From NCBI GenBank assembly GCA_030650425.1, contig JAUSED010000003.1, positions 7,903 to 71,902 of the forward strand: a stretch of DNA of 64,000 nt, written 5' to 3'. A program made the position numbers and the translations under genes. This DNA is from Candidatus Omnitrophota bacterium. Lineage in GTDB: Bacteria > Omnitrophota > Gorgyraeia > Gygaellales > Profunditerraquicolaceae. Below the pieces are notes generated by a model. It ran no database searches and was not told the DNA's origin. It worked only from the letters and a program-made list of their open reading frames with translations. Positions 7,563 to 27,475 of this stretch are shown piece by piece; position 1 is the first letter of the stretch, and each line of letters opens with the position of its first letter.

Positions 7563-7667
7563 CGAAACTGTTTCCATTGCAAAGCGGAAACTGTTTCCGA
7601 GCCAATCGGGAAACAGTTTCCCTCACAAGTTGGAAACAGTTTCCCTCACAAGTTGGAAACAGTTTCC
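7563..7667. repeat. REP array 2: five units starting at 7563, 7586, 7609, 7632 and 7655, between atpG and atpD.
   Basis: Exact 23-nt phasing. Linkers are attgcaaagc, gagccaatcg, ctcacaagtt and ctcacaagtt. Confidence 0.9.
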
Positions 7668-7674
7668 TTTGTAT

Positions 7675-9075
7675 ATGGAGAATTGCATAGCTAAAGTAAT
7701 CGCGGTTTACGGTTCGGTAGTGGACACGCAATTTTCAGCCGGCGCTCCGCTTCCGTCAATAGGCGCAACGCTAAAAGTCTGTATTCCTCCGGAAAAAGAG
7801 ATCGGCCTGCAGGTAGTCGAGCATCGCGGAAAGAATATCTGCCGCTGTATAGCCTTAGGGTTTACCTACGGAGTCGGCCGGAATATGCCGGTGGGTTTAG
7901 GAGGCCAAGAATTAGCCGTTCCCCGCGACCTGAGCCAGCTTTATGGAAGGGTATTGAACGCGCTGGCTAAGCCCATTGACCATAAAGGAGATTTGGATCT
8001 TAGTGATTCAGTACCATTAAAGAGTCTGGAGTGCGCGGTTCAGGCTGAAGTTAATTTGGACGCCGAAATAAAACCCGAAATTATTTATACCGGCATTAAG
8101 ATGATCGATTTACTTTTTCCCCTGCTCAAAGGTTCAAAAAGCGGGCTTTTAGGAGGGGCTGCCTGCGGTAAAACCGTGCTTATCCTTGAGATCATCCATA
8201 ATATCATCAGTTACCAGAGCGGAACCTGTATTTTTGCCGGAGTAGGAGAACGTATCCGCGAAGGGAACGAACTTTATCACGAATTTTCGCGCGCGGATTT
8301 GCTTAAACGTTCTATAATGATTTTTGGCCAAATGAACGAATCTCCGGGTATGCGTTTTGAAGCAGCGCATACCGCGGTCGCGTTGGCAGAACTTATGCTG
8401 CACCAAAGGAAAGATGTCCTTTTCTTTATGGATAATGTCTTCCGTTTTGTGCAGGCTGGAAGCGAGTTATCTATTCTCTTGGGCAGGATCCCTTCCGAGG
8501 GAGGATACCAATCTACCCTGACCAGTGAAATCAGCCAGCTGCATGAAAAAATCCGTTCGGAAAAAAACGCGAGTATCACCGCCATTGAAGCAGTATATGT
8601 GCCTGCCGACGATCTTACTGATCCGGCGGTAGTGGCGATTTTCGCGCATATGGATAATTTGATCGTGCTTTCGCGCTCACTGGTGCAGCGCGGGCTCTAT
8701 CCGGCGATTGATCCGCTGCAGTCATCAGCGAACTCCCTAAGCCCCTCTGTTGTGGGGAGAAGGCATTTTGATGCGGCGCAGGATGTCTTGCGCCATTTCC
8801 GTCGCTATGACGAGCTGGAGAGGATTGTTTCGATTATCGGTAAAGAGGAGCTCTCGGCGGATGAAAGGATCATTTTCGACCGGGCAAAAAAACTGCAAAA
8901 TTTTCTTTCCCAGCCATTTTTTACCGCTGAACTTTATACAGGAAGGCCGGGGGCTTATGTTTCTTTGGAGGATACGATTAGCGGGTGCGAGAAGATTATG
9001 AGCGGGGCATTGGATAAGCTGGATGAATCTAAGCTCTACTGTATAGGCAAACTGGAGAGTAAAAATGTCGAATAA
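7675..9075 (+). CDS. atpD: F1 ATP synthase beta subunit.
   Basis: P-loop [29 protein letters not shown], and DDLTDPAV. The track start 7630 is a TTG inside the REP array; ATG 7675 is preferred. Confidence 0.85.
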
Positions 9076-10678
9076 ATTATTAGGCGATCTTTTGGTGAAA
9101 AAAGGGTGCATTACTCAGGAACAATTAATCGAGGCGCTCAAGGAATCCGCGGGACAGGAGGATATGCTCGGGAAGATTCTGGTGAGCAGGGGGCTGGTTA
9201 AGGAAGAAGATTTGCTGAAAGTCCTTTCCGAACAGTTCAATATTCCCTATTATCCGCGCCTAAAAGACCTGCAGATTTCCGCCGAAGCGATTAGGGCTGT
9301 GCCGGCGAAGTTTGTGCAGCATTACGGGTTTGTGCCGGTGAGCCTCGAAGGCCAGATCCTCACGGTGGCGGTTTATAATCCGATGGATGTCTGGCTTGCC
9401 GAGAATATCAAGCTTAATTTGGGATTCGCGGTGCGCAGGGTTTTAACCTCGCGTCACGAAGTCGAAGAAGCGATACATAAAAACTACGGTTCAGTTGCCG
9501 GAACCGTGGATAAGATTATGGAAGGCAAGCAGGGTAAGGATAGGCTGGTTAAAGATGCGGGCGTAGAGGATATCGAGAAGAACGCGGAAGACGCCTCGGT
9601 GATAAAATTAGTTAATCAGATCATCACCGAAGCGATTAAGATGCGCGCTACCGATATCCACGTCGAGATCTACTCGGATAAAGTAGTTTTACGCTACCGC
9701 ATCGACGGAGTTTTGCGCGAGATGCGTATGCCGCCGGACGCCTATTATATCGAACCGGCGATCGTCTCGCGGATCAAGATTATGTGCCATTTGGATGTGG
9801 TGGAGCACCGTGTGCCGCAGGATGGCCGGGCCAAGGTTCGCCTCCTCGATGGAACAGAGGTCGATTTAAGAGTTTCCATATTGCAGGGATATTTCGGCGA
9901 GAATGTGGTCATCCGCATCCTGCCTACGCATGTACTTTTGGATTTGGATAAAATTGGTTTTCTTCCGGAGGACCTAAAAACCATTACCAAAATTATCCAA
10001 AAGCCGCACGGGATTATTTTACTTACCGGGCCGACCGGGAGCGGAAAAACCACCACACTTTACACCTGCCTTAGCCGCCTCAACCGTAAAGAAGTGAAGA
10101 TTATCAGTATCGAGGATCCGGTCGAATATGCCATTGAAGGTATAACTCAGATACACGTTAATCCCAAAGTCGGGCTGACCTTTGCCAGTGCCTTAAGGAG
10201 CGTGCTTAGGCATGACCCGGATATTATGATGATCGGCGAAATCCGTGATTCGGAGACCGCGGACTTGGCGATCAGGTCGTCACTCACCGGCCACTTGGTT
10301 TTTTCCACTCTGCACACTAATGATTCTGCCACTGGTGTTGCCCGGTTGATGGATATGGGAGTTGAGCCGTATCTATTGGCTTCTTCAGTGGAAGTGATCA
10401 TCGCCCAAAGATTGGTGCGCCTGCTCTGTTTACAGTGTAAGGGAAAGGGCTGCGAGGCTTGCAGTGAAACAGGCTTTAAAGGAAGGAAACCGATCTACGA
10501 GATTATGTTGATTAGCGACACTATCCGCACGATGATTACGGAACATAAGAGCGCCGGCGAGATCAAGGCTCAGGCAATTAAATCTGGAATGCGCACGCTC
10601 CTGGAAAACGGGATGCAGCTGGCTGAACAGGGTTTGACTTCCAAGGAAGAGATTATGCGCGTAGTAGAATTAGAGTAG
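9065..10678 (+). CDS. Type IV pilus / type II secretion assembly ATPase (PilB/GspE family).
   Basis: N-terminal GspII_E_N-like domain, Walker [12 protein letters not shown], and a tetracysteine motif [12 protein letters not shown]. Confidence 0.9.
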
Positions 10679-26135: not shown

Positions 26136-27391
26136 ACAAACGTAGAGTAGTGATTACCGGAATAGGCGTGGTTTCGCCTAACGGCATCGGCAAAGAAAAA
26201 GTTTATCAGGCGATGTGCAATGGCGTCTCCGGAATAAGGCGGGTGGATGGTTTTGATGTCTCGGTATTTAACACTAAGATTGCCGCGGAAGTGCGCGATT
26301 TCGATCCGTTTAAACTTGGCCTTACCCACGAAGAGGCTGTACGCATGGATAGATATGTGCAATTTGGCGTGGTCGCCGGAAATATGGCTCTTTGCGACAG
26401 CGGTTTGGATCTGGCGAAAGTTGACCCTGAACGTATCGGCGTCTGTCTGGCTAATGCTATCTGCGGGACAAAATATATGGAAGAGGAGTTTGCCTTGGTA
26501 ACTTGCGACGGGAAGAACCCTATTGATCCGTCAAAGGTACGTCCTGACCTTTATGACGCGGCGATGTTTAATACCCCTTCTATTGAATTGTCGGCTAAAT
26601 ATCACCTTAAAGGAATATGCAATACGCTTTCTACCGGCTGCACAGCCGGCACTGATTCTTTGGGGTTCGGATTAGAGACGATTCAAGATGGAGAGCAGGA
26701 GATTATGATTTGCGGGGCGGCGGAAGCGCCGATTACGCCGATTACTTTCGGTGCCTTTGATGTAGTCAATGTTTTGTCGGTGCGCAATGATCATCCGCAG
26801 GCCTCAAGCCGTCCTTTCGATAATAAGCGCGATGGCTTTGTCCTAAGCGAAGGCGCGGGTATTTTAATTTTAGAAGAATTGAATCACGCCTTAAAACGGA
26901 ATGCCCGGATTTATTGCGAAGTTTTAGGATTTGGCACCAGTTGTAACGCCTTTCATATGACCGATCTTCCGGGCGATGGACAGGCGATGACTACTTGTAT
27001 TGTCTTGGCTCTCAAAGATTCCGGGATCAAGCCGCAGGAGATAGATTATATCAGCGCCCATGGCTCAAGCACGAAAATGAACGATATATTCGAGACCAAC
27101 GCCTACAAGGCGGTTTTCGGCGATTACGCCTATAAACTTCCGATCAGTTCGCTTAAGTCGATGATCGGGCATCCCTTGGCCGCATCCAACGCCGTGGAGA
27201 TGACCGTCTGCTCGATGATCTTCGAAAGAAACATCCTTCCGCCGACGATCAATCAGGATGAAAAGGACCCTTTGTGCGACCTGAATTATATTCCCAACCA
27301 AGCGATTAGCAAAAAAGTAGATACGATTATTAAAACCAGCTCCGGTTTTTCAGGGATTCATTCTTCGTTAGTTTTAAGGAGATATAAATGA
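26132..27391 (+). CDS. Beta-ketoacyl synthase (KS alpha, FabF-like) with an intact Cys-His-His triad.
   Basis: Active-site TGCTAG, with His in NAFHMT and His in KSMIGHPLAASNA. Confidence 0.9.
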   Translation: MNKRRVVITGIGVVSPNGIGKEKVYQAMCNGVSGIRRVDGFDVSVFNTKIAAEVRDFDPFKLGLTHEEAVRMDRYVQFGVVAGNMALCDSGLDLAKVDPERIGVCLANAICGTKYMEEEFALVTCDGKNPIDPSKVRPDLYDAAMFNTPSIELSAKYHLKGICNTLSTGCTAGTDSLGFGLETIQDGEQEIMICGAAEAPITPITFGAFDVVNVLSVRNDHPQASSRPFDNKRDGFVLSEGAGILILEELNHALKRNARIYCEVLGFGTSCNAFHMTDLPGDGQAMTTCIVLALKDSGIKPQEIDYISAHGSSTKMNDIFETNAYKAVFGDYAYKLPISSLKSMIGHPLAASNAVEMTVCSMIFERNILPPTINQDEKDPLCDLNYIPNQAISKKVDTIIKTSSGFSGIHSSLVLRRYK

Positions 27392-27398
27392 AAAACAG

Positions 27399-27475
27399 CG
27401 AAACTGTTTCCATCTCAATCGGGAAACAGTTTCCGAGCCAATCGGGAAACTGTTTCCGAGCCAATCGGGAAAGTG
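27399..27475. repeat. REP array 8: units at 27399, 27422 and 27445, plus a degenerate unit at 27468, between the KS alpha and KS beta genes.
   Basis: 23-nt phasing. Linkers are atctcaatcg, gagccaatcg and gagccaatcg. Confidence 0.9.

Follow-up and report, generated by a model that had tools for sequence, protein, structure and literature searches.

Phased palindromic arrays at gene junctions of a Candidatus Omnitrophota genome as likely REP-type elements of a neighbouring putative tyrosine transposase

Why should tandem arrays of a short palindrome stand between genes that are normally co-transcribed? This question is raised by a 64,000-nucleotide stretch of contig JAUSED010000003.1 from a Candidatus Omnitrophota bacterium (the window), of which ~94% is coding and in which the + strand holds 61 of 65 long open reading frames (ORFs). 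An earlier sequence-only reading had placed such arrays between atpG and atpD, between a pilus ATPase gene and its platform gene, and between two ketosynthase (KS) genes, and had proposed that they donate gene ends and spurious starts and might tune the expression of the flanking cistrons. In our analysis, these arrays, designated family 1, are likely to be non-autonomous elements of the repetitive extragenic palindrome (REP)/bacterial interspersed mosaic element (BIME) type that belong to a REP-associated tyrosine transposase (RAYT) gene at 18459-18941 on the - strand; the hairpins of a second family (family 2) probably belong to the same system.

According to this explanation, the RAYT, acting as a single-strand HUH/Tyr nuclease, would spread the units. 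The units would persist only where they are tolerated; in so densely coding a genome, this leaves the few nt that separate a stop codon from the ribosome-binding site or start that follows, also where cistrons had formerly been coupled. The arrays would then grow or shrink by exact 23-nt steps. Some of their linkers supply TGA/TAG stops and TTG/GTG pseudo-starts, giving short C-terminal tails and false long ORFs as passive by-products. By analogy with enterobacterial REPs, five-core hairpins in polycistronic transcripts would probably hinder 3'-5' decay and/or disturb termination and re-initiation.

The family-1 unit is 23 nt long and consists of a 13-nt core, GGAAACWGTTTCC, which is a self-complementary palindrome (GGAAAC[A/T]GTTTCC), and a 10-nt linker. 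With at most one mismatch, 35 core copies were found in the window against 0.06 expected, and shuffled sequences gave a maximum of 1. All 35 cores are grouped as nine arrays (A1 to A9) of 3-5 cores each in an exact 23-bp register, and Tandem Repeats Finder also reported many short period-23 arrays. The arrays, the RAYT gene and the family-2 copies are as follows, with the strand where one is assigned.

1361..1465, no strand assigned: A1, family 1, 5 cores (T,T,T,A,A), which begins 2 nt past the native TAA of ORF 36-1358
5137..5243, no strand assigned: family-2 copy A, nested inverted repeats, REPIN-like, between an atpH-like gene and atpA
7563..7667, no strand assigned: A2, family 1, 5 cores, between atpG (stop 7558-7560) and atpD (ATG 7675)
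10680..10784, no strand assigned: A3, family 1, 5 cores, between the T2SSE ATPase gene (stop 10676-10678) and the T2SSF platform gene (ATG 10812)
13967..14048, + strand: A4, family 1, 3 forward cores and terminal motif GGAAACGGGGCAT, between a GspM-like gene and a pseudopilin gene (ATG 14062)
18378..18459, + strand: A5, family 1, 3 cores and terminal motif GGAAACTGTCCCC(TAG), the last base lying in the RAYT stop codon
18459..18941, - strand: putative RAYT, 160 aa, HUH motif PNHIHI, Tyr motif YVEQNP
18955..19036, - strand: A6, family 1, terminal motif (reverse complement GGAAAGTGGACTT) and 3 cores, inverted with respect to A5 and directly upstream of the RAYT start
22590..22694, no strand assigned: A7, family 1, 5 cores, between a YkuD/LysM gene and accA
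27399..27480, + strand: A8, family 1, 3 cores and terminal motif GGAAAGTGGGCAT, between KS1 (stop 27389-27391) and KS2 (GTG 27497)
34167..34241, no strand assigned: family-2 copy B, at the 3' end of an amidohydrolase gene (34197) and at the edge of a crcB-containing indel
44312..44380, no strand assigned: A9, family 1, leading linker AAATTGTGAG followed by 3 cores, the next gene starting 7 nt after the last core
59845..59899, no strand assigned: family-2 copy C, AGGGGACACTTTCC...GGAAAGTGTCCCCT

The neighbours identified by Pfam and NCBIfam, ATP-synt gamma and ATP-synt_ab beta for A2, T2SSE and T2SSF for A3, and ketoacyl-synt on both sides of A8, agree with the three placements proposed earlier. 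Within the arrays, forward units end with one of three linker types (..CAATCG, ..CAAAGC or ..GTGAA(G)), and the linkers of reverse units start with CGATT.., GCTTT.. or (T/C)TCAC... The central base of the core mostly follows the orientation of the unit (T for forward, A for reverse). This holds for ~24 of 29 units by manual tally, which is strong but imperfect, and its use as a perfect orientation marker was rejected. Units are arranged in same-orientation blocks (e.g., T,T,A,A,A) at a constant spacing of 23 bp, with no alternation, and in five-core arrays forward units precede reverse ones, forming large inverted repeats. Four arrays (A4, A5, A6 and A8) are closed by a directional terminal motif, GGAAA(G/C)TG(G/T)(A/C)C.. 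The core is stop-free in every frame; stops and TTG/GTG codons come from certain linkers only, and all three + frames of A2 and of A8 are free of stops. Array starts in the window range from 22 nt inside the 3' end of the upstream gene to 16 nt past its stop, and co-directional gene pairs flank 32 of 55 arrays. A CRISPR array was rejected on account of the 13-nt repeats, the 10-nt linkers of three recurring types, the 3-5 units per array and the many loci. A known structured RNA family was likewise rejected, since Rfam 15 at its gathering score gave two tRNAs only in the window.

Family 2 has the consensus of nested inverted repeats (G/C)TAGGGGACACTTTCC...GGAAAGTGTCCCCTA. Its ends (GTAGGGGACACTTTCC) differ from the 3' flank of the RAYT gene (CTAGGGGACAGTTTCC) at 2 of 16 positions, and by this resemblance family 2 is probably a substrate of the same RAYT.

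The ORF at 18459-18941 matches Pfam Y1_Tnp (E 4.6e-11) and reaches the NCBIfam equivalog NF047646 REP_Tyr_transpos marginally, scoring 80.3 bits where the cutoff is 80 (E 1.2e-22). Its only match in the PDB is E. coli TnpA_REP 4ER8 (E 0.004), in which LPEHMHCI and YIYINP align with its PNHIHI and YVEQNP. Judged by these matches, the ORF encodes a RAYT. The annotated product has 160 aa (MDO8661751.1), and exact look-up of a 167-aa longest-ORF form gave no match. At least 120 orthologues of ~160 aa, 57-87% identical, were found. The catalytic motifs are kept in 119-120 of 120, and all homologues with a stated organism are from Omnitrophota. Each orthologue cluster lies mostly on a single contig, and no tnpB adjoining the RAYT gene was found with Pfam in the window. 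A5 and A6 stand in inverted orientation to one another, with their terminal motifs towards the RAYT gene, whose TAG stop overlaps the terminal motif. In three related loci (L026, L037 and L086; loci from relatives are numbered with L), the RAYT orthologue is flanked on each side by one or two core-linker-terminal units. In these three genomes and in the window, the RAYT gene adjoins comM (66-100% identity), and it appears to be vertically inherited at this fixed locus. A more distant orthologue in L088 occupies another location and is accompanied by a different repeat. A transposase gene flanked by inverted repeats is the defining arrangement of RAYT/REP systems (PMC2817692, PMC5581495); genes of this kind delimited by inverted REPs, and length polymorphism of BIMEs, have been described (PMC2817692). 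The REP analogy drawn by the sequence-only reading is thus borne out, as the RAYT gene in the window is bracketed by inverted arrays.

The same architecture could also represent phased operators for a dimeric DNA-binding protein, such as a nucleoid protein, a gyrase/IHF-like factor or a regulator, bound in the 23-bp register, with the transposase being incidental. The palindrome is nearly invariant and the linkers are variable, a conservation that exceeds the need of a hairpin; moreover, the period is regular, and E. coli BIMEs bind IHF, gyrase and Pol I (PMC2817692). However, the arrays lie in transcribed operons and even within ORFs, inverted arrays flank the RAYT gene in several genomes, and no candidate binding protein was identified. 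We therefore consider this explanation very improbable. Protein binding could be a secondary property of REP elements but would not replace the REP explanation.

Next, orthologous sites in relatives were compared with the window. A metagenome scan with the gamma subunit gave 39 loci (L045-L083) in which synteny is conserved over the whole atp-pil region, and a scan of a genome collection for two phased cores gave 41 loci, nearly all from Omnitrophota metagenome-assembled genomes (MAGs) and usually with 2-3 cores per array. The atpG|atpD junction measures 114 nt in the window and ≤10 nt in 22 of 37 relatives (2-3 nt from stop to ATG where read directly). Similarly, pilB|pilC measures 133 nt in the window and ≤11 nt in 18 of 23 relatives (1-7 nt where read, with 1-3 nt at empty sites); gspM|gspG measures 107 nt against 11-26 nt in element-free relatives (24 nt in L044), and atpH|atpA 147 nt against 1-17 nt in many relatives without an element. 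These comparisons indicate that the arrays are insertions into junctions of 1-10 nt, which were probably translationally coupled before. Occupancy also varies among relatives. At atpG|atpD, L046 has no family-1 core, L048 one, L045 two and the window five. At the KS|KS junction, a relative that is ≥90% identical (L084/L085) has two cores, compared with three in the window, and the TAG of its KS1 overlaps the first core; L085 further carries a 3-core array upstream of KS1, where the window genes overlap by 4 nt. In other lineages, the same junctions hold unrelated palindromic elements (GTCATTGCGAGG.., GGGACAGCG.., GGTGACAGTCAC.. and GTAGGGGAGGTTTAAACCTCCCCTAC).

The translation signals at these junctions were examined as well. 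The empty gspM|gspG site of L044 has an identical Shine-Dalgarno (SD) sequence, AGGAGGAGA, and A4 lies between the stop codon and this native SD. Since A4 and A8 terminate in sequence similar to the 5' flank of the RAYT gene followed by an SD, donation of the downstream SD by the arrays had been considered; for A4 the idea was dropped, because the empty site of L044 has AGGAGGAGA too. At pilB|pilC in relatives, the SD (GGAG) lies within the last codons of the ATPase gene. In the window, A3 stands between pilC and this older SD, and downstream of the array there is a new GGGGAG. The 27 nt at 10785-10811 (ACTATGCTATGGCGGGGAGAATAGATT), between A3 and the pilC start, have no counterpart in empty sites and contain the sole pilC SD; their first 8 nt pair with the pilB end in the predicted fold. 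No SD is visible ahead of atpD at the atpG|atpD junction.

These comparisons also bear on whether a transposase is needed at all. If the arrays were minisatellites, slippage of the 23-nt unit would have produced each array, and gene conversion would account for the similarity among sites. Exact 23-nt tandem duplicates do occur inside arrays (e.g., 7609-7667 at 100% identity), and slippage may contribute to array growth after insertion. Nevertheless, slippage cannot seed the unit at nine or more unlinked sites in the window and at dozens in other genomes, the empty orthologous sites (gspM|gspG, atpG|atpD and pilB|pilC) hold no seed sequence, and the association with RAYT is consistent across genomes. 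A transposase-independent origin is accordingly the least credible of the explanations that we considered.

Do the arrays, as had been proposed, donate stop codons and C-termini? This stood for two genes. The glycosyltransferase family 39 (GT39)-like (PMT_2) protein has the C-terminus ...VLVYKRKAETVSNL (...YKRKAETVSNL), with its TGA at 18397-18399 inside a linker; ETVSNL* is encoded by the first core of A5 and a ..GTGAA linker. The 20 orthologues lack this tail and end in ...YK(R/E)K plus 0-3 residues, in agreement with the earlier account of a gene ending at 18399 within an array. The amidohydrolase, of 310 aa, has the C-terminus ...LEQFLNSRGHFPSGL*, and its last 10 residues and stop come from family-2 copy B; this tail, FLNSRGHFPSGL (NSRGHFPSGL), lies within the repeat, as had been claimed. 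The other 119 homologues listed have 300-308 aa, except for one labelled partial, and the 29 whose C-termini were inspected mostly end in ...ILAL*. At the point where the window sequence enters family 2, the nearest relative has GAACAGATTTTGGCTAATTAA. Comparison of orthologous C-termini had been set beforehand as a check, and it indicates that both tails are insertion-derived. In addition, the TGA of ORF 43664-44320 is supplied by AAATTGTGAG, the leading linker of A9. Stop donation did not hold for arrays 1, 2 and 3, where the stops are native and occupy the identical codon position in relatives without the array. KS1 was said to end 8 nt before A8; the distance to the first core is in fact 7 nt.

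The spurious starts were confirmed as artefacts of longest-ORF calling. Starts inside repeats arise for atpD (TTG 7630, in A2), KS2 (GTG 27473, in A8), atpA (GTG 5234, in family-2 copy A) and crcB (GTG 34217, in family-2 copy B), the four genes previously named. The real starts are ATG 7675 for atpD, GTG 27497 for KS2, ATG 5255 for atpA and ATG 34262 for crcB. By exact look-up, the atpA product on record has 486 aa. NCBI annotation uses the short starts, and only one public call, a Logan crcB of 139 aa, uses the in-repeat start. Both the gene-end and the false-start effects arise because the cores are stop-free, so that frames run into or out of the arrays. As for the names KS alpha and KS beta, they are fair in the form KS alpha/beta-like. 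KS1 retains the active-site Cys (TGCTAG), and in KS2 the Cys and His motifs are replaced by ADRASS and GNLLGAS; with these replacements, KS2 is an inactive partner resembling a chain-length factor.

We then analyzed the predicted RNA structure of the arrays. Five-core arrays gave folds of -52 to -63 kcal/mol with z of -8 to -9: A1, -55.9 kcal/mol (z -8.9); A2, -51.8 kcal/mol (z -8.4), in whose minimum-energy structure the atpD AUG is base-paired; A3, -62.2 kcal/mol; and A7, -62.9 kcal/mol (z -9.1). Family-2 copy A gave -58.3 kcal/mol, and the one-sided arrays fold weakly (A4, z -1.8; A8, z -3.0). Intrinsic termination was rejected as a function, since no T-run follows the arrays and a terminator scan of 1-20000 found no + strand site in A1-A6; its sole array match was weak and on the - strand (7591-7570). 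Judging from the modelled folds, a REP-like effect of the arrays on mRNA or translation is plausible. REP-induced ribosome stalling near stop codons is said to have been reported by Liang, Rudd and Deutscher in Mol Cell in 2015.

A further explanation is that the arrays are selected regulatory spacers, whose RNA hairpins set the expression of flanking cistrons through an exonuclease block, ribosome stalling or start-codon masking. The very stable predicted hairpins with the paired atpD AUG, array starts 1-16 nt past stop codons and the new SD after the array at pilB|pilC would fit, as would the presence of some palindromic element at the same junctions in ~30% of related lineages and the effects of REP/BIME on mRNA stability documented in E. 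coli (PMC3184786). However, presence and length vary among equally close relatives, 22 of 37 of which keep atpG|atpD at ≤10 nt, and the families found there share no sequence relationship. Arrays are also present outside operons, on either side of the transposase gene and within ORFs, and a barrier after atpG would raise gamma relative to beta, contrary to the 1:3 stoichiometry. We regard selected spacers as unlikely. The suggestion that the arrays tune the ratio of F1 gamma to beta, or of the two KS proteins, found no support: occupancy differs (0, 1, 2 or 5 cores), unrelated families are involved and gains and losses occur nearby, and occupancy this polymorphic and mixed speaks against tuning as a conserved, selected role. 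In these sequences, the pattern looks like that of tolerated selfish DNA, and nothing points to a selected regulatory device.

Copies read in frame were observed in relatives. In L052 and L068 (~4062-4105; window equivalent near 11020), a core and linker lie in frame within the T2SSF/PilC ORF (TETVSQPIGKWGL and SETVSVPSGKWGI), directly 5' of the conserved ..CGGGAAATGGGGC.. (SGKWG codons), a look-alike of the terminal motif, and the net length of that protein region is unchanged. A 57-nt module of two cores, two linkers and a terminal motif, equal to 19 stop-free codons, occurs in frame within very long ORFs, always in the forward orientation, and encodes the peptide GN(S/C)F..ETVS..IGTVG (L036 at 2572 and 7861; L029 at 7020; L011 at 6131; L004 at 4242; L022 at 6040; L023 at 6305). 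That these giant ORFs are artefacts of ORF finding was rejected, since five loci each have a frame that stays open across the whole 8 kb; these ORFs contain recognisable domains, with sigma-70 domains twice and a PrmA-like region in L036. One speculative idea, to which we give little credence, is that arrays grow by RAYT-catalysed addition of 23-nt units 5' of an anchoring terminal motif, the look-alike in pilC being used in the same way and the 57-nt form being read in frame. If this were true, it would be a REP system with defined, sequence-anchored array extension, whose products have been recruited as coupling-breaking operon spacers and as peptide linkers in giant proteins.

How does this system compare with those already described? 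As in the REP/BIME and RAYT systems of Enterobacteria, Pseudomonas, Stenotrophomonas and Xanthomonas, a single-copy-looking Y1 HUH gene lies between inverted repeats, and there are many short palindromic extragenic copies, most of which follow closely after an ORF and stand between co-directional genes. Also shared are clusters of regular spacing whose length changes from relative to relative, copies that now and then overlap gene ends, stop donation and false N-termini (PMC2817692, PMC3733652). Di Nocera et al. found that most REPs follow closely on an ORF and separate co-directional or convergent genes, and that some lie in ORF ends; stop codons were often supplied by REP termini, and many apparent N-terminal REPs were mis-called starts (PMC3733652). 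In-frame insertions of repeats into ORFs have been reviewed (PMC3184786). In contrast to REP/BIME, the RAYT-proximal end here bears a distinct directional terminal motif as its cap, the host belongs to the phylum Candidatus Omnitrophota and the protein is distant from E. coli TnpA_REP. The repeat doublets (REPINs) of Pseudomonas fluorescens resemble family 2 and the five-core arrays in folding into one long hairpin, and their RAYT is also apparently vertically inherited at a fixed locus, which here is next to comM. However, REPINs are doublets, whereas the present arrays have 3-5 units, and A4 and A8 are one-sided and weakly folding. Rickettsia palindromic elements (RPE) share stop-free units that are read as protein, as in the GT39-like and amidohydrolase tails and in the 57-nt module within PilC and very long ORFs of relatives. 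Unlike RPE, an identifiable cognate transposase is present here, and the window has C-terminal tails only, with no internal insertions. With IS200/IS605, the system shares the transposase superfamily (Pfam Y1_Tnp) and hairpin-forming sequence beside the gene; in contrast, tnpB is missing, the gene is not seen in multiple copies and keeps a conserved chromosomal position, and short repeats, not the gene, have multiplied.

Several points weigh against a REP/RAYT assignment. Described REP units are imperfect palindromes of 20-40 nt that bear a GTAG or CGTC tag, whereas the family-1 core is a perfect 13-nt palindrome followed by a 10-nt linker and contains no such tag; (G/C)TAG is carried only by the RAYT-adjacent terminal motif (CTAGGGGACAGTTTCC) and family 2 (GTAGGGGACACTTTCC). 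BIMEs alternate strictly, whereas the units here stand in same-orientation blocks, forward and then reverse. The NF047646 score is barely at its cutoff, and the one RAYT that has been characterised is matched only weakly (E 0.004). RAYT activity, an excision footprint or a target-site rule could not be shown, and the counts of arrays and of RAYT describe the 64-kb window rather than genome-wide copy number. Finally, occupation of the same junctions by several families could reflect selection for a structured spacer.

Other palindromic elements and neighbouring genes were noted in the course of this work. Approximately 16 of ~20 intergenic gaps of ≥60 nt in the window are made up of palindromic elements, including the additional families GGTGACAGTCAC.. 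and GGGACAGCGCC.. A third family, GGTGACAGTCAC-N7-GTGACTGTCACC, occurs at 20638-20678, 24175-24195 and 54752-54798 of the window and also in L058 and L079, in the latter as multi-copy arrays at three atp junctions. Hairpins with a GGGAC motif (e.g., AATAGGGACAGCGCC...GGCGCTGTCCCTATT) occur at 53878-53949, 16719-16761, 31338-31368 and 50529-50563, and an element of the GGGACAGCG type recurs in the atp junctions of many relatives. The 456-nt atpA|atpG junction of L046/L047 holds a small ORF with a GIY-YIG-like N-terminus by eye (..VIYTGVTSDLQKRIYEHK..), bounded by GTCATTGCGA-type repeats. Across window 4394-14457 and the 39 related loci, F1 genes (fused b/delta-like, alpha, gamma and beta) are followed by T2SSE-T2SSF-PilMN-GspM-pseudopilin. 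No epsilon gene lies between beta and the T2SSE ATPase gene, and in many cases the stop of beta and the start of T2SSE overlap (L045-L083 and the window). Family-2 copy B forms the left edge of the crcB indel: crcB and the following 109-aa ORF (window 34198-34997) are missing in the nearest relative, where the amidohydrolase gene directly precedes a PNP_UDP_1 gene, and a different 150-aa gene occupies the indel position in L090 (L089 and L090 were compared). The active KS and its inactive KS-like partner share a compact cluster at window 25539-30284 with a gene of the TIGR04076 family and one for a B12-binding radical SAM enzyme, which suggests unusual lipid or polyketide chemistry. A guess at anammox or ladderane biology from TIGR04076, the B12 radical SAM enzyme and the two KS was rejected, as the source is Omnitrophota.

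Stop donation, false N-termini and intragenic REPs are already known for REPs, and the present system is not a new kind. What is new is the host phylum and, with it, an unusually short 23-nt phased unit, orientation blocks, a separate terminal motif and untagged cores. No paper naming Omnitrophota was among the 10 best matches of a full-text search with terms for REPs and for MITEs (miniature transposable elements with inverted repeats). For the annotation of these MAGs, the 13-mer and its relatives account for most intergenic spacers of ≥60 nt, for several extended C-termini and for a class of false upstream starts. The repeats probably also break assemblies, because many RAYT orthologues lie on very short contigs. 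The likely partnership between these arrays and RAYT would extend REP/RAYT systems to Candidatus Omnitrophota in the form of a compact phased unit, and the natural filled and empty alleles at atpG|atpD and pilB|pilC would offer a clean system for the effects of hairpins on translational coupling and mRNA decay.

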